Source: a virus (Duplodnaviria > Caudoviricetes). Taken from it: a DNA stretch of 64,000 nt. The position numbers were made by a program, and so were the translations under genes. Of this stretch, positions 27,274 to 53,956 are shown piece after piece. Within the stretch, counting starts at the first letter, position 1. Every line of letters begins with the position of its first letter. Location of the stretch: the IMG/VR virus record IMGVR_UViG_3300028591_005215, positions 192,001 to 256,000 of that record; one strand, written 5' to 3'. The notes beneath the pieces were generated by a model that saw only the letters and a list, made by a program, of their open reading frames with translations, ran no database searches and had not been told where the DNA came from.

Positions 27274-30200
27274 GAATAAAAGCGGATATTGGTAAAGATA
27301 AAGTGTTGCATTTAAATATGAAGCAAAATGTTGATTTATTTGAAATATTATCTTTACAATTATCCCAAGAAGATGCTTATAAAATACATTCTGCTAATTA
27401 TGGCGTTATTGTTGGACGAGTATTAGCTAATGATGCATTTGGTATACCAAATGCAAAGGTTTCTGTTTTTATACCATTGACTGACGAAGATTCACTAAAT
27501 AATGATTTAGTGAATCTTTACCCTTATAAGGAGGTTAATGATACTAATAAAAACGGCAAAAGATACAACATACTACCAAATTATTCTGAAAATAAATGCT
27601 ATAGCAAAGTAGGCACTTTTCCTTCAAAAAGGTTGGTGTTAGACAATGATTCTATGTTGGAAGTTTATGACAAATATTATAAATATACAACAACTACAAA
27701 TAAAGCAGGTGATTATATGATTTTTGGTGTACCTACAGGTAGTACACAAATTCATGTGGACATTGACCTTTCTGACATAGGTATCATTTCGCAAAAGCCT
27801 AGAGATTTAATATCTAAAGGATATAGCATAAACCAATTCCAAAGCCCAACAAAGTTTAATGAAAGTAATACTTTAGATGATTTAGCACAGCTTTACAGTC
27901 AAAATGAAACAGTAATGGTTTACCCTTTTTGGGGTGATGAAAATTTCGAACAGATTGCTATTTCAAGGAAGGATGTAAGCATACAATATGAATTTACTAC
28001 ATCTTGTGTGTTTTTAGGGTCAGTTATTACTGACAGTAGGAATAACAACATATCATTTGATTGTGACGTAAGTGAAAATATGGGTGAAATGTCACAATTA
28101 GTGCCAAACGAAGGCACTATAGAAATGATAAGAAAAACACCTTATGGAAATGTAGAAGAATTGGTAATCAAAGGAAACCAACTGATAGATTCAGATGGGA
28201 CGTGGTGCTATCAAATACCTATGAATTTAGACTACGTTGGAATGGATGAAAAAGGCAATATTGTGCCTACCAACGACCCTACTAAAGGAATACCAACAAG
28301 GGCAAGTGTTAGATTTAGATTTTCGTTAACCGAAAATAGTGATAGTACAATATCAAGGCACAAAGCTAAATATTTAGTCCCAAATAACCCTAAAATAAAT
28401 GATGGTGGCCTACGTTCCCCTATTTTGGTTGACGATGATTATGATAATATGTATGAATTTGGTACTAATACACCTGATTCTTGCTTTAGGGATTTATTAT
28501 GGGATTGTGTATATAGTGTCAAGAATTATATACCAAGAACACAAATAAATAATTATTTATCGCAATATTACACAGGTATAAAGGGTGTTAATAAAGAATC
28601 GTCTAGCAGCAAAAACATTTTTCCTTACAATAAGATAAGAACAAAAGTTAATCTTTCTACAAATGAAATATTAAGTAACTTTTGGGATGACTTTTTTAGT
28701 GAAAAAGCAGAAGTAAAACAATTCCAATATGTTTTTTGGGATAGCGCTGTAAATAGAACACAATATCCAGAACTTGACACATATATAGAAAGTGTTCTTG
28801 AAGAAGATGACGCAATATCGTTAGATTTCTATAATGATTGGATAAATGGGTGCTTATATTTTCCATTATGGTATTGGAGGAATAACGCAACTAATTCATT
28901 AAATGGCAATGTTTCCTACATTGATACATTTTGCTCAAGCAGTAAAAGCTATAATAATTTAATTTTAGCTGATACTGGCAATTTGCCAATATGCTTTGAG
29001 GGGTATGGTGGACTTGCATCCGATACGATGTATGTTAAAAATCATTTAATATATGATAATAATAAGAATGCATTAAATGACGCCCCAAGAACTAATGGCA
29101 AATATTCTTTTTTTTATAGAATTTTTAATTATTTTAGAAATTTATATACAACATATTTTGATGACGTTGTATATAGATATGATAAAATAATAAACTATAT
29201 GAAACTGAATAATGGGTTAATTAAAAATGTATTAAATAAAGATGGTATTAACATATATTATTACAATTCATCGCAATATTCAGAAGGTACTTCTAATAAA
29301 ATAATTAGAAGACTATATTCAACTGATATTATCCTATTAGGCAGTTTATCTGATTCTGATATTAATGGAATACCTAAATTTAGTAACATTTACCCTATGT
29401 CATCTTGTAATTTACCGCCTATGGGTACGCATAGTGATGATGAAGGAAATAATAGTGTTACGGGTATGCATTGGGGTACATCTAAAGATGATGAAAATAT
29501 AGACCTTGATGATGAAGGCTATAGAATGAGGAAAGGCTTATTCTTTGGCACAAGAAGAAATTGGTACACTTTTTATGAATATATATGGTTGCTTATTGGT
29601 AGAAAAGAATACAAAAGTATAATTACTGCATATACTAGCCCCAAAACATTTATTAATCTTGAAAGAATTTGCGAACTTGGCGTATCTCTTGATATGCCTA
29701 TAGCAGATAAAAACGGTGATGGACTAATAACTGTAGATGAAATACAAGATAATTATTCAAGGCAAATTTTCTCAACATTAAATTCGAATACACTATTAGT
29801 GTCAGATGATTCTGTTAATAGTATCACAGGATACAATTTTTATAAATTGAAATATCTTTGCCCTTATGATTTTAATGGGTTATTAAAAAACTATAAAGAA
29901 TATTATGCAAATGATTCAGATGCTACTATACCTGAAGAAGAGAATGGTTTTGATGAAGTTGACAATGATTATCTTAAATTCAGGTTTGGTGAAACACCTA
30001 AGTTTTATATAAAAAGGCCTAATGATGAATACTTTTTCCCTTTATATAATAATTCATTTTATTTTTATTTTGGTATTAATGAAGGTAGTACTGCAATAGA
30101 TAAATTTAAACGTGATTATATAGATGAATGCTTAACCGATTCTGATAGTACGTCAAATATGAATGTACAAATAAATTATACTGCATCAACTTATTGTAAT

Positions 30201-48814: not shown

Positions 48815-50857
48815 ATGAATAAAAAAATAGAATGGTACGGTGAAATAACAGGTGATGGGAGAACTTGGCTATCATTTACTTATGATGATACTAAGGGTTA
48901 CGAATATGACACAACCACTAAACCTAAAAAAATAATAGTAACTACAGATGATAACAATGGAAGCTTAACTGACATAATTGGGTTGGATTTAGAACCAAAT
49001 ACAACACAATATATTAGAAAAACAAACGTTGAATTTTATCAGTTAGGCGGGAAGCATATATCTTACGAAGTTACACAAAAAGTAGGGCATAGTTTTATTG
49101 AAACGAGTACTTATGAAGAAATATCTACTTGGGTATTTAATTCAATGTCAATTTCACCTGTTAGTGAAACGTGTGAATGCGACACTACTGAATACACATT
49201 TAAAGCAATTTATTCTCATAAGCCTAAATATGTAACATATTCTAAAGGGTATTATGCTGATAATCCTGATGAGGAAATTAAGATAGTTAAAAGTGAAAGA
49301 TATGGTGATGTACAATATATTTCAGACCCATCTAAATTTATTTGGGCTACAGATAATGGCACTATAACTAATGGTAAGTTAACATTTAATGAAAATGTAG
49401 ATAGGAACAATTATGTTTTATATAACGTAACTGCAACATATAGAGATAATTATAATGAAAAAAACGCAACTGGCGTACTAAAGCAAAAAGCAAATGACAA
49501 AACTGCAACGTACACGGTTAATACTAATATACCAAATGCAACAGCAACATTCACAATTGATAACGAAATTATATCAGCTATAACAGTAGCATATGTTTCT
49601 GATAATGAATATACAGCCATTTGTGAAGGACCTTTAAATTCATCTTTAAAAGTAGCTATTACAGGTAGTAAAAATGAAATAATCACTTATTCTTTAGATG
49701 TGTCACCAAAAAAATGGGATATTAAGGAATCAAGTGCATTAACGGTAACAGTTACAAGTAATAAACATGTTGAAGAAAATGATTTTTCTAACAACTCTTA
49801 TACGTATCCTGATAATATATACAACGCTACTATCAATATAAATAGAAAAACAAGTGATAGTGAAGCATCTTATTCAGCTATTCTTCCTGATGGTATAACT
49901 GATGAATCGGTAGATGGCAATTTTACATATCTAAAAGCTGCTGAAGGGAGTTTAAAGGATGGTGGCGAAATAACATATTATTTAACTGAATCTGAAGACA
50001 TAAAAGCTAAGATAAGTGTAAGTAATTCAACAAGTGATGACAAATTTTTGGAAGATAAGATGATGACATTAGTTTATGACTATGGTATAGTTGGTAGAAC
50101 TTTAGAGACAAGGCCTCAGATTATGCTTTATAGGTCAAAAACTAATAGTAGCGTAGAAGCAATATATGTAGCCACAACATCGCAATCTACTCTTCATCAG
50201 GGGACATTTGATGTTATAGAAATTAAAAAAACTGACAAAACATATATAACTGACGATGGTACTTTTTATGTTTTAAACATTTCAAATCATCACGAATTAG
50301 TTGTTAATGGTAATAAAGTTATAGTTTTTTTAAAGCTTATAGGTGATGACGTACCAGATGAAATGCAATACTATAACGGAAATATAACAGCAGTAAGAAT
50401 ACCTACGCCATATACAAAACTTGATAATGCTTGTTTGTATTGTAACACCAGCTTGCATCATTTGTTTTTAGGGAATACAATTAGTTTACTTGTATCAGAT
50501 TGTTTAGCAGGTTTTGCTTCAATAAAAGAAATATATTTTGGCTATGAAGAAGCGCCTACTTTGAATAAAGGTAACGGTACAGGGCATACTTTTAGAGATA
50601 CTTATAGAAACTCGCAAGCATCAAGTAAAGATTGCATTATTTATGGAGTGAAAGGAAGTTATGATAGTTATCATGTTGATAGTAATGACCCTTGGCAATG
50701 GGATGGGTGTATATATGCTGACGTTTCAGGTCGTTCAGATATTAACAATAATACGAAAACATGGAGGATTGATACTGACACTTATACAGTAGATAAAGAA
50801 CTTGAAATCTTCAAGGAAAAGGTAATTAATGCTAATACAGGTGACCCTATTGTATAA
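48815..50857 (+). CDS. Ig/BACON-like repeat virion protein with C-terminal BspA-type leucine-rich repeats
   Basis: ITAVRIP...LDNACLYCNTSLHHLFLGNTISLLVSDCLAGFASIKEIYF...APTL pattern. Confidence 0.55.
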   Translation: MNKKIEWYGEITGDGRTWLSFTYDDTKGYEYDTTTKPKKIIVTTDDNNGSLTDIIGLDLEPNTTQYIRKTNVEFYQLGGKHISYEVTQKVGHSFIETSTYEEISTWVFNSMSISPVSETCECDTTEYTFKAIYSHKPKYVTYSKGYYADNPDEEIKIVKSERYGDVQYISDPSKFIWATDNGTITNGKLTFNENVDRNNYVLYNVTATYRDNYNEKNATGVLKQKANDKTATYTVNTNIPNATATFTIDNEIISAITVAYVSDNEYTAICEGPLNSSLKVAITGSKNEIITYSLDVSPKKWDIKESSALTVTVTSNKHVEENDFSNNSYTYPDNIYNATININRKTSDSEASYSAILPDGITDESVDGNFTYLKAAEGSLKDGGEITYYLTESEDIKAKISVSNSTSDDKFLEDKMMTLVYDYGIVGRTLETRPQIMLYRSKTNSSVEAIYVATTSQSTLHQGTFDVIEIKKTDKTYITDDGTFYVLNISNHHELVVNGNKVIVFLKLIGDDVPDEMQYYNGNITAVRIPTPYTKLDNACLYCNTSLHHLFLGNTISLLVSDCLAGFASIKEIYFGYEEAPTLNKGNGTGHTFRDTYRNSQASSKDCIIYGVKGSYDSYHVDSNDPWQWDGCIYADVSGRSDINNNTKTWRIDTDTYTVDKELEIFKEKVINANTGDPIV

Positions 50858-50926
50858 AAAAATAAATATAAAAGTAGACTTTTTTTTTCAGTGATATAGA
50901 TATTTATTATTGCAAAGTTTGTTAAT

Positions 50927-51262
50927 ATGAATATAATAATAGAAAGAGTTATTTCGCAAACCATTAATAAGCTCATCAACGAAAACTGTTCAAGGTCATC
51001 AGTCATAACAGAGAACGATGGTGATGATATGGGTATCTACAAAGAACTTGATGATAAGGTTATTGATATTTGTTATCGTCATGATTTCAATGTACAAACA
51101 AGAGTTGGCAACGATTTGGCATATTATGCATTTTTCATTGCAGATGACAGACTACCAAAAGTTCAAGAATCAATACAAATGTTGGAGAAACTTGGACTAA
51201 GAAGAATCAATAATGGGACTTTAAGCGGAACAATACATTATTACACTATAGATTTTCACTAA
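50927..51262 (+). CDS. Small accessory protein with a degenerate leader (IIERVISQTINKLINE)
   Basis: TATTTAT at 50901-50907; its stop codon is the first 3 nt of the IS element. Confidence 0.65.
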   Translation: MNIIIERVISQTINKLINENCSRSSVITENDGDDMGIYKELDDKVIDICYRHDFNVQTRVGNDLAYYAFFIADDRLPKVQESIQMLEKLGLRRINNGTLSGTIHYYTIDFH

Positions 51263-52600
51263 ATAACGTTCCAAGGATGCCCACACGCTTTAGCGGTGGG
51301 AGGAATTGGAACAAATTTTTATTTTTTTTTTTCTTATTTATTTAAACTTTTAAAACTTTCTTTATATTTATAATAAGAAGGGTATTTCCCTTGAGTGAAT
51401 AAAAACACATGACGTACAGAACATATAACATAGAGCTACAAATGAGTGACACAACACACAACTATTGGATGAGCCTATTGACTCAGACAATGGAAGCTTA
51501 TAACTGTTGTGGCAACATCGCTGTACAACAGCAAATACCACTAGGTATTAAGCCCTTCCATGATAATTTGTATGGTATAATCAGAAAGAAGTTCCCACTG
51601 ATTCCAGCACAAGGTGCAATAAAAACTTATAAGGAAGTCCTTTCAACACTCAGAGCAATCAGAGGTAACAAACATAAGAACGCCTCAGTTCCTCAACGTA
51701 AACAACTGTCATTACATCTTGATAAAAGAATGTATTCAAGACTTTCCATTGATGGTATATCCTTGACAACTGAAGTAAGAAACAAACGTGAGTTCTGTAC
51801 ATTTATCCTCTTCGACAAGGTGAGAGAATTATTCTCCACTTGTGTCCCAAAAGACCCTACAATCTTTGCTCGTAACGGTAGACTATTCCTTTCAGTATCT
51901 TTCGAGGTTCAATCCTTGCCTTGCAAGGATGACACCGCAATCGGTGTTGACCTTGGAATGAAGAGATTCTTTGTCACCTCAGAAGGTAAGTCCTTCGTTG
52001 ACAAGAATTACTTGAAACAACGTAGGAAACTACGTTATTTGAAGCGTTGTCTCCAGAGCAAATGTTCTCATTCATCCAAAAGGCATCTTCAACGTTTATC
52101 CCATAAGGAACGTAATGTTTCCAAGAGCCAAGTTGAAAAAGCTTGCAATGTGCTACTTCGTAGCACCAATACAAGTATTCTTGTATTGGAAGACCTTACG
52201 AAGATTAAGACGAAGACTTCCAAGACAAAGGAAGGTTTTAAGAGGACAAGACATAACAATGCCTTGTCTCAAGTCCCATTCTATATGTTCAAAGAACGCT
52301 TGACCAATAAGGCACAACTCGTTGGAAAACGAGTTGAAACAGTTTCTCCAGCGTTTACAAGTCAGACTGACAGCCGAACAAACAAACGTAATGGCATCCG
52401 CCACGGATGCAATTATATATGTTTTGATGGTGTTGTCCTTGATGCTGATTGGAACGCTGCGGTCAATATTGCACTTCGTGCAAAACACCCACTTTCGAGC
52501 AGCGAGCTGCCCTTAAGTGGCAGGGTGCGGTCAATCACCCAATCGTCAGAAGCCTAACGGCTTTATGGCAAGCCACTGACTTTAGGCAGTGGTAGTTGAC
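51260..52600 (+). mobile_element. IS200/IS605-family non-autonomous element (tnpB only, IS1341-like); predicted TAM TCAC
   Basis: LE hairpin CCCACACGC-TTTA-GCGGTGGG preceded by GATG, predicting cleavage after TCAC (51256-51259); RE hairpin CCACTG-ACTTTAGG-CAGTGG preceded by CAAG, predicting end TGAC (52597-52600) by IS608 guide rules; GC-richer than flanks. Confidence 0.85.
51409..52557 (+). CDS. tnpB: TnpB RNA-guided endonuclease
   Basis: RuvC triad intact: GVDLG, VLEDL, DADWNAA; Zn finger degenerate (TSQTDSRT...ICFDG). Confidence 0.92.
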   Translation: MTYRTYNIELQMSDTTHNYWMSLLTQTMEAYNCCGNIAVQQQIPLGIKPFHDNLYGIIRKKFPLIPAQGAIKTYKEVLSTLRAIRGNKHKNASVPQRKQLSLHLDKRMYSRLSIDGISLTTEVRNKREFCTFILFDKVRELFSTCVPKDPTIFARNGRLFLSVSFEVQSLPCKDDTAIGVDLGMKRFFVTSEGKSFVDKNYLKQRRKLRYLKRCLQSKCSHSSKRHLQRLSHKERNVSKSQVEKACNVLLRSTNTSILVLEDLTKIKTKTSKTKEGFKRTRHNNALSQVPFYMFKERLTNKAQLVGKRVETVSPAFTSQTDSRTNKRNGIRHGCNYICFDGVVLDADWNAAVNIALRAKHPLSSSELPLSGRVRSITQSSEA

Positions 52601-52620
52601 TAAATAACGAATTAAATACG
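52480..52620 (+). ncRNA. Predicted omegaRNA (reRNA) scaffold plus guide (guide starts 52601: UAAAUAACGAAUUAAAUACG); 5' end approximate
   Basis: Hairpins CTGCC/GGCAG, AAGCC/GGCTT and the RE hairpin; GTCAA (52530-52534) can pseudoknot with terminal TTGAC. Confidence 0.65.
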
Positions 52621-52629
52621 TATTGAAAT

Positions 52630-52920
52630 ATGACTAAGAAACTTATAAGACTAACAGAAAGTGACCTTCACAGGATTGTGGAGAAGTCAGTAAACAGAAT
52701 ATTGAAAGAATCTGATGATTTTAAGCCAACAGGTTATAAAACCGCATCTAACCTTGGTGGGCATGAGGTGCAAATAAACCCTTCTGGTGACTCTGCTCGC
52801 TTTAAATTCTATGGTGGCGAACCAACAGATTGGATGGAAATAGAATTTGATGAAGATGGCGTTGCATATGTTGAGACAGAAAGAGGTCGTGAACTATTAT
52901 CAGACTATATGAGATATTAA
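52630..52920 (+). CDS. Accessory protein with an N-terminal KKLIRLTESDLH leader
   Basis: MTKKLIRLTESDLHRIVEKSVNRILKE followed by a ~65-aa beta-rich domain. Confidence 0.75.
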   Translation: MTKKLIRLTESDLHRIVEKSVNRILKESDDFKPTGYKTASNLGGHEVQINPSGDSARFKFYGGEPTDWMEIEFDEDGVAYVETERGRELLSDYMRY

Positions 52921-52934
52921 TTATGTAATCAAAT

Positions 52935-52966
52935 AAAGAGGTATACTATTGAAGGTATACCTCTTT
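52935..52966. terminator. Bidirectional terminator overlapping the primase stop
   Basis: aaagaggtatac...gtatacctcttt. Confidence 0.7.
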
Positions 52967-53956
52967 TATTTTTATAGCATTTGCTAAATGTTTAAGTATT
53001 ATTTTTTTTCCTCCTAATTGGAAAAGCAATGATGGGTCGTATTTTTCGTCAACAGGTATATATCTTATTTTATTATACAATCTTCCGTGGTTTAATTCTT
53101 TATATGTTTCAAGAGCAGTTTGAAATGTATCACCGTCAATAAAAATATTAATGTTTGCATTTGCTTTTGCATTTATATCCCAATAAAGTTTAAATTTTTT
53201 ATCAATTACTTTACCAAGTAATGGCACTGAGTTTGGTACTACTAAGTGGTCAAATGGGCCTTCTACGAGTGTAACATCAGCATCCCACTGTATTTTCTCT
53301 TCATTAAAAATAATGTCACGTCTTTCTACCTTTGGGTTATAATACTTTTGCCTTTTTTCATTTCCTGTAAAATCACGACCTGTCCAATAATTAAGCTCAC
53401 CAAATTTATTGTATGAAGGCAAAATTATTCGATTTGAAGCCATTTTATCTTCTTCATCATACATTGTGAAGCCTATATTAAAATCGTGTATTATATCCCA
53501 AGTAATACCCCTTTTTTGAAGATATTCCATTGCTTTTGGTGGATAATATTTATCTTCTCTAAATGGTCTAAAACTTTTTGGTAATTTTACATTGTCTATT
53601 TGCGCTAAATCAACTTTAAATGTTTTAGCAAAATCTATGTTATATAGTTTACTATCTCTTAATGATTGAACACATTCTTTATATTCTTTATAAAGTTGTT
53701 CGTTACCATACAATTTTAGCAACTTATATACTGAGCCATGCATTTCATCATCGTCTTCAGCACCACATTTCCAACAATGAAACACAAAATAATTACATTC
53801 AAGGTTATACTTTTGAAGTTCCCTATTTCCATATTTTTCAGAACAATGTGGACATCCAAATTGCAACTGTGTGTAATTTGCGTCAAATCCTCCTTTCGCT
53901 TCACCTAAAAATGAAGCCAATATAGAATACATTCTTTGAAATTCTGGTGGTAACAT
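52946..53956 (-). CDS. DNA primase (Zn finger + TOPRIM)
   Basis: CPHC...CWKC, YLQKRGI, RIILP, GRDF, VEGPFD, IDGD, YDP. Confidence 0.88.
   Translation of the reverse strand: MLPPEFQRMYSILASFLGEAKGGFDANYTQLQFGCPHCSEKYGNRELQKYNLECNYFVFHCWKCGAEDDDEMHGSVYKLLKLYGNEQLYKEYKECVQSLRDSKLYNIDFAKTFKVDLAQIDNVKLPKSFRPFREDKYYPPKAMEYLQKRGITWDIIHDFNIGFTMYDEEDKMASNRIILPSYNKFGELNYWTGRDFTGNEKRQKYYNPKVERRDIIFNEEKIQWDADVTLVEGPFDHLVVPNSVPLLGKVIDKKFKLYWDINAKANANINIFIDGDTFQTALETYKELNHGRLYNKIRYIPVDEKYDPSLLFQLGGKKIILKHLANAIKIKEVYLQ

Follow-up and report, generated by a model that had tools for sequence, protein, structure and literature searches.

ISDra2, IS608 and their transposase-less derivatives carry subterminal hairpins in the same orientation, insert at a pentanucleotide that doubles as the transposon-associated motif (TAM) of TnpB, and have a right-end RNA whose guide lies in the flank. 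In models of TnpB homing, the empty site (TAM plus flank) is the target of this guide and is repaired from the occupied copy, which restores the transposon exactly (Karvelis 2021, PMC8612924; Meers 2023, 10.1101/2023.03.14.532601). Such homing has been shown in laboratory systems; few direct traces of it are known from natural genomes. Its spread into co-infecting phages ('non-restorative homing') is, to our knowledge, only a proposal made in a review (PMC13565253). Here we describe a TnpB element of a jumbo rumen phage (IMG/VR record IMGVR_UViG_3300028591_005215; 279,749 bp, ~30% G+C, estimated to be 80% complete), at positions 51260-52600 of a 64,000-nucleotide (nt) stretch of its genome. 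We call this stretch the window (G000:C1:192001-256000 of the record, with G000 denoting the phage genome). The first nine bases of the element are identical to the first nine bases of its right flank. The repeat is real and not random, on a phage-borne TnpB element that is ordinary in all other respects, and the repeat may be a scar left by homing.

The element resembles ISDra2, IS608 and their derivatives in its hairpins, in a pentanucleotide site that is also the predicted TAM, in the absence of duplications at its other copies, in its intact RuvC triad, and in a predicted right-end RNA with a guide in the flank. It differs from ISDra2 and IS608 in lacking an internal tnpA, in having a nested left hairpin preceded by a linker of only 5-11 nt, in having lost most of the zinc-ribbon cysteines of TnpB, and in that its linker equals its own flank. 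The process that we invoke is this repair of a cut empty site from an occupied copy, and it is deduced here from one junction. The homing models restore the transposon exactly, and we found no hybrid left end that keeps recipient bases described in these papers (PMC8612924; 10.1101/2023.03.14.532601; PMC13565253). Phage group I introns and free-standing endonuclease genes offer a second parallel: they also spread between co-infecting phages by cutting and copying, and their junctions record the ends of heteroduplex or conversion tracts (PMC13565253). In classical co-conversion, markers of the donor flank enter the recipient, whereas here recipient bases would persist inside the end of the element. 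Finally, RNA-guided binding of TldR proteins at a TAM plus a short seed represses, so short matches can work (10.1101/2023.11.30.569447). Unlike TldR, the TnpB of the window keeps its catalytic triad, and thus is not a TldR, and it is encoded in a mobile element with intact ends.

Ends of the element and the repeat at its junctions

Pattern and protein searches of viral and metagenome contigs gathered about 30 related copies, six of them close and more than 20 distant. The close clade is present only on phage-like metagenome contigs: in prokaryotic genomes, pattern search and tblastn detected no relative of this TnpB, nor did the left-end hairpin have an exact match there, and the phage GenBank collection gave no DNA match to the locus. 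The right end of all related copies reads ...GT(A/G)GTTGAC (...GTAGTTGAC) and the sequences diverge directly after it. Since conservation stops at TTGAC, the right end lies at 52600. Six close copies, which form a 90% protein cluster and all occupy unrelated sites, share sequence from the base right after TTCAC (ATCAC once), which places the left end at 51260 and designates TTCAC as the target site and predicted TAM. This motif is the left flank in six of the seven close copies, the window included, and ATCAC in the other, while relatives at 52-78% amino-acid identity use TTCAT. These comparisons bear out the original prediction, drawn from the letters of the window, of an IS200/IS605 tnpB element that starts after TCAC at 51260, ends with TGAC at 52600 and uses a TAM of the TCAC type. 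No other copy starts near 51268 or begins with TAAATAACG, and the TAM is the same. The prediction had also stated that elements of this family make no target duplications; indeed, none of the six other close copies has a flanking repeat.

The junctions of the close copies can be compared directly. At the left, TTCAC is followed by AAAAAACG in L025, L026, L029 and L031, ATCAC by AAAAAACG in L033, TTCAC by TAAAAAACG in L032, and TTCAC by TAAATAACG in the window. At the right, the bases following TTGAC are AACTGTCA (L025), TTTCTTAA (L026), TCTTTTCG (L029), AAAAAGTC (L031), TCAAAAAT (L033), TAATTTGC (L032) and, in the window, TAAATAACG again. Beyond these starts, the left end does not vary among the seven over ~140 nt, apart from the length of a T-run and three scattered differences, each confined to one copy. 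L032, at 97.7% identity, is the sister of the window copy and has the same variant of the right-end hairpin; the remaining five sites make up a second clade, with 91% identity to the window.

The window thus reads TTCAC-TAAATAACG at 51255-51268 and TTGAC-TAAATAACG at 52596-52609. This amounts to a direct repeat of 11 exact bases, ACTAAATAACG (from 51258 and 52599), as had been predicted, and to 13 matches out of 14 when extended leftwards. The accompanying claim that the left end copies its own guide seed stands as to the identity, which is complete (9/9), but much less as to the copying: 7-8 of the nine bases are inherited from the left end of the family, which begins (T)AAAAAACG and whose linker varies in length (5-11 nt) and sequence. 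The bases specific to this locus are only T51264 and perhaps T51260. T51264 (A to T) is unique to the window copy and exactly completes the 9/9 identity; T51260 is common only to the window and its sister L032, and this leading T may be ancestral to the pair.

The other half of the repeat belongs to the phage. The leader of a paralogous gene (G000:154488-154564, minus strand) has TAAATAACAAATTAA at the same distance from the start codon and reads TAAATAAC at the position matching the right flank of the window, which is therefore native phage DNA. The leader of the downstream gene and its first ~17 codons (MTKKLIRLTESDLHRIV..., window 52601-52680) are repeated at two other places in the phage with 85-89% DNA identity, G000:154488-154564 (minus) and G000:197872-197926 (plus), ahead of otherwise different genes.

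How surprising is the repeat? By our own arithmetic from base composition, nine matches out of nine in a single fixed register would arise by chance with a probability of ~1e-5. Counting both strands, the 279,749-bp genome contains TAAATAACG eight times, about the number expected from composition (again our arithmetic), which rules out a dispersed phage motif. Among the 693 TTCAC sites of the phage, only this junction is within one mismatch of TAAAAAACG, and three sites have two mismatches. Window-specific substitutions amount to ~1.4% over the left 650 nt, and the chance that one of these few hits 51264 with the matching base is ~0.5%. The joint probability is ~1e-5, which stays low even when corrected for the few dozen copies compared here; it is to be read in the context of the very many windows scanned overall. 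Across 21 other copies, the prefixes shared by the starts of left end and right flank sum to 20, against a shuffle mean of 11.8 (p ~0.01), and 3 of the 21 share at least 3 nt, against 0.7 expected (p ~0.02). The boundaries of distant copies were placed by eye, automated TAM assignment being unreliable on them, and the family-wide excess is therefore suggestive only. A right-end pattern applied to IMG/VR for close pairs from other subfamilies gave 120 mostly chance matches with 34 true ends, no two of them close enough with complete left ends, and only 3 loci matched a left-end pattern of a second subfamily.

Origin of the repeat

The window-specific change points to the flank and the flank is native, which favours a scar of homing or gene conversion; one of the readings offered in the original prediction is thereby preferred, though not proven. 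The cut made by TnpB falls at a distance of 15-21 bp from the TAM and has 5' overhangs (PMC8612924), and the left broken end of a cut recipient would thus keep TTCAC and at least 15 target bases (TAAATAACGAATT...). Normally, this tail would mismatch the left end of the donor and its flap would be trimmed away. Here, the first nine bases of the tail would pair with the donor linker TAAAAAACG at eight of nine positions; trimming would then stop at ...AACG and a polymerase would extend the recipient bases into the element. After replication the left end would read TAAATAACG with the right junction untouched, leaving nine target bases on both sides. Because the right flank is native, the direction of copying would be from flank to element. 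In this way, a TnpB cut at the empty site would have been followed by homology-directed copying with an occupied allele as the template, which installed, or re-installed, the window copy, and we regard the repeat as having about an even chance of being the scar of such an event. The kept host stop codon, the direct repeat of 11-14 bp and the TAM with a 9-nt seed at the occupied site would be by-products, not necessarily functions, and TnpB could at most bind the occupied site, not cut it.

The first of these by-products concerns the upstream gene, whose open reading frame ends TTT CAC TAA, with CAC in the TAM and TAA formed by element bases 1-3; the stop is thus preserved, as had been predicted. 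With the usual start AAAAAACG at this place, the frame would gain 10 codons (KKRSKDAHTL*). At L032, the upstream frame does run on into the element, in a different frame, which rules out restoration of a stop codon as the cause of the extra T there.

Coincidence helped by selection would dispense with homing: an ordinary insertion at a linker-like TTCAC site, with T51260 (TAA) kept for the host stop and A to T at 51264 a random neutral change. Most of the identity comes at no cost under this explanation, with 7-8 of nine bases inherited, both sequences A/T-rich in a genome of 30% G+C, a linker that is unconstrained and variable across the family, a sister (L032) that already has the leading T, and so many windows scanned that some rare matches are expected. 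We nonetheless find it unlikely, given the joint probability of ~1e-5, at most one in 690 TTCAC sites this similar, and the ~0.5% for a window-specific substitution to fall on 51264 with the right base; selection on the stop codon covers the first three bases only, and a family-wide excess of junction prefixes would be unexpected. The choice of so linker-like a site could instead reflect homology-assisted insertion in which TnpB made no cut (template switching or short-homology recombination), or a preference of the transposase for linker-like targets. The site, TTCAC-TAAATAACG, resembles both junctions of another copy, TTCAC-TAAAAAACG at the left and TTGAC-TAA... at the right, as at L032, and by reasoning two switches at these 8-14-nt similarities would reproduce the structure exactly, with nine target bases on both sides. 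Recombination is frequent during phage replication, and this mechanism would explain why the occupied site is the most linker-like TTCAC site as well as the general prefix excess. Set against this, the transposase-type ends are intact, relatives insert at TTCAC with no flank similarity, and most right flanks bear no resemblance to the linker. In single-strand transposition, no pairing is possible between target and transposon strands, whose polarity is the same, and we know of no preference described for IS608 or ISDra2 for bases past the 4-5-nt site. A transposase pathway that joins strands of the same polarity and makes no known use of similarity past the pentanucleotide predicts none of the repeat, and we consider the whole class of homology-assisted routes quite improbable.

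Two further explanations concern the role and the reality of the repeat. It might be a selected self-target, at which the complex of TnpB and guide binds the left junction without cutting and stabilises the element by damping read-through into tnpB or by blocking the transposase. The TAM and the 9/9 seed are in the correct orientation, ~85-100 nt upstream of promoter-like hexamers; a 10-nt guide match leads ISDge10 TnpB to bind without cleavage (PMC13507860), and the repression exerted by TldR relatives relies on a seed of ~6 nt and on natural guides that are 9-11 nt long (10.1101/2023.11.30.569447). By analogy, self-binding for autoregulation, the other reading offered in the original prediction, is physically plausible. 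Yet no other close copy has such a match, which is thus not a family feature; the site lies upstream of a terminator-like hairpin and not on the promoter; and selection of this kind explains maintenance, not origin, and is not needed for the repeat. We judge a selected self-target very unlikely. The boundaries could also be misplaced (element at 51269-52609), or the repeat could be a true 9-bp target-site duplication around an element at 51269-52600. Any boundary within the exact repeat gives the same empty site, and the window by itself cannot decide. The related copies can: conservation ends at TTGAC in all of them, not 9 nt later, the six close copies share the linker right after TTCAC with no flanking repeat, and the right-hand copy of the repeat is native phage sequence. 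The linkers of the close copies and the conservation of the right end exclude both versions, to which we attach next to no probability.

The homing scar that we favour has points against it as well. It is one clear case, at a single junction. The extra T of L032 is also the first base of the L032 flank and may simply be inherited. The mechanism needs a prior likeness between target and linker at eight of nine positions and does not itself account for it, and the permutation test relied on visual placement of the boundaries in distant copies. For this element and this phage, homing is so far only a proposal, and the searches yielded neither an empty allele nor a readable donor allele of the same locus: an exact look-up of the 111-aa upstream protein and of the window TnpB returned three more assemblies of the locus, and it is occupied in four of four, the window included. 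Other searches for an empty allele were fruitless. A search with the 111-aa protein found only a truncated match at a contig end, a degenerate empty-site pattern had 30 matches, all A/T-rich and due to chance, and among primase neighbours in IMG/VR one related phage (L034) had no homologue of the flanking genes. This phage, whose primase is 76% identical, carries a different TnpB of 436 aa (L034:5173-6483) directly beside its primase gene, and TnpB elements may land repeatedly in the vicinity of the primase.

Anatomy and surroundings of the element

The features of the locus are collected in the table. The element is a 1,341-bp non-autonomous member of the IS200/IS605 family with tnpB, a predicted right-end guide RNA and no transposase, and it sits between two phage genes, next to a DnaG-like primase.

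Table. Features of the TnpB element and its flanks (positions in the window).
Feature	Position	Strand	Remarks
Upstream phage gene, 111 aa	50927-51262	+	No Pfam family
TTCAC: transposase target and left cleavage site, predicted TnpB TAM	51255-51259	+	Left flank of six of the seven close copies
Left-end linker TAAATAACG, identical to 52601-52609	51260-51268	+	AAAAAACG or TAAAAAACG in relatives
Left-end nested hairpin	51268-51312	+	Fold z-score -3.3
T-run, then tnpB upstream region	51313-51408	+	Conserved in all close copies except for T-run length
tnpB, 382 aa	51409-52557	+	Pfam OrfB_IS605 (PF01385) and Cas12f1-like_TNB (PF07282), both over cut-offs
Predicted omegaRNA scaffold, overlapping the 3' end of tnpB	52462-52600	+	Consensus fold of 19 copies
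TTGAC: right cleavage site, last bases of the element	52596-52600	+	Last invariant bases in all related copies
Right flank: predicted guide and TnpB target of the empty site (TAAATAACGAATTAAATACG)	52601-52620	+	Native phage DNA
Downstream phage gene, 96 aa, MTKKLIRLTESDL... family	52630-52920	+	Start codon 29 nt past the element

No inverted repeat links the two ends, and both subterminal hairpins are conserved among the copies, with compensatory changes. In the predicted fold, the linker is single-stranded through C51267 and G51268 is the first base of the left hairpin, which has an outer stem GTTCCAA/TTGGAAC, an inner stem CCCAC/GTGGG and a CTTTAG-type loop; it is identical in all seven close copies and has the same architecture in distant relatives. 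By inspection, its internal loop GGATG (51275-51279) pairs position by position with TTCAC in the manner of IS608, relatives with a GGAAA loop use TTCAT, and the right-end foot GCAAG goes with TTGAC. The last loop position thus covaries with the target (G with C, A with T), and from these pairings GGATG is likely the guide for the TTCAC cleavage site. The hairpin is followed by 17 nearly all-T bases, which gives this region (51268-51332) the look of an intrinsic terminator just past the upstream stop; its internal loop is the reason why a simple scan missed the structure. Such a terminator-like left end may insulate the element from read-through. The tnpB upstream region has promoter-like hexamers (51341-51368) and a small hairpin (51378-51392). 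Elsewhere in the window, at ~27,486-27,515 (G000:C1:219,486-219,515), lies a perfect 30-nt palindrome, AGATTCACTAAATAATGATTTAGTGAATCT, each strand of which carries TTCAC and then a 5-7-nt match to the predicted guide seed.

An alignment of TnpB with TnpB and Cas12f proteins of solved structure shows the RuvC D-E-D triad (D of GVDLG, E of LEDL and D of DADWNAA), in agreement with the intact RuvC residues of the original prediction. The TNB zinc ribbon (52340-52440, residues ~311-344) is degenerate, TSQTDSRT...HGCNYIC, with two Cys and one His versus four Cys (CCCC). The open reading frame is intact in eight copies and the ratio of nonsynonymous to synonymous substitution rates (dN/dS) is 0.12-0.16 against more distant copies and ~0.13 against the other clade. 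This purifying selection despite the lost cysteines argues that the protein is still functional and, as judged from its sequence, TnpB looks active, a point in favour of the homing scar. Over the last ~140 nt of 19 copies, the scaffold fold has 26 pairs, 13 of them with compensatory changes. The terminal GTTGAC pairs with GTCAAT (52462-52467), and the right-end hairpin (52573-52592) lies within the scaffold. Since the covariation runs to the terminal GTTGAC, the guide is predicted to begin at 52601. No Rfam family matches window 50500-53500.

No Y1 (HUH) transposase TnpA is encoded within 51260-52600, and the element is therefore non-autonomous. The same phage carries a complete IS200/IS605 element at ~G000:259,640-261,381, ~15 kb off and ~5 kb beyond the right edge of the window (L037/L038). 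It has a Y1 transposase (G000:259693-260055, minus strand, 134-137 aa, PF01797 at 125 bits) and a TnpB of 398 aa on the plus strand. Its left end, TTTAT followed by AAAACCG, leads into a nested hairpin of the type found in the window element, and its right end reads ...GGGTAGTTCAC / ...CCCACAAATCTTTAGTTTGTGGGTAGTTCAC. Its transposase could mobilise the window element in trans.

Comparison of the copies also reveals a mosaic (window, L025, L026, L028, L029, L031, L032 and L033). Over the left ~650 nt the copies are ~99% identical, synonymous sites included; in the right half the clades are ~15% apart, and L026 switches allegiance along its length. This pattern points to recombination between element lineages. 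The right-end hairpin has CCACTG...CAGTGG in the window and L032 and CCCCTTCC...GGGAGGGG in the other clade, with several compensatory changes; as the left hairpin is invariant while the right one varies, the two are not kept alike within one element. Two other copies have unusual ends. In L020 (440-580), the right end ...GTAGTTGAC abuts a second left end (linker AATTATTCT, nested hairpin with a loop insertion, T-run). Such a head-to-tail junction would result from insertion of a second element at a TAM kept beside a resident one, and the guide of this copy would be a left-end linker. In L010 (2380-2500) there is no left-end hairpin and TTCAT abuts internal sequence (AATTGATTATTTTTC...) ~70 nt upstream of tnpB, which makes it either a derivative with a deleted left end or an aberrant junction.

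Meaning for TnpB-bearing elements

If the repeat were a coincidence, the element would be an ordinary phage-borne TnpB cassette. The window locus as the ancestral home of its linker can be ruled out, A-rich linkers being a trait of the whole family. Our broader proposal, which we put forward tentatively, is that the left-end linker of TnpB-bearing IS200/IS605 elements is a rewritable record of the target, into which homing writes the TAM-proximal bases of the recipient. Element-side bases replaced by recipient bases would be a natural trace of a process known from the laboratory, and such scars would also explain why the linker evolves much faster than the rest of the left end. There are practical consequences: ends deduced from a single copy may be misplaced where the element has partly copied its flank, and copies of this kind carry a TAM-plus-seed site and a direct repeat of 11-14 bp that could affect regulation and allow precise loss with no need of a transposase. 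If true, the footprint in the linker would distinguish homing from transposition and would amount to a partial self-target. Should it prove general, as the excess of junction prefixes across this family hints, it would allow natural TnpB homing to be detected from sequence only, including between co-infecting phages.

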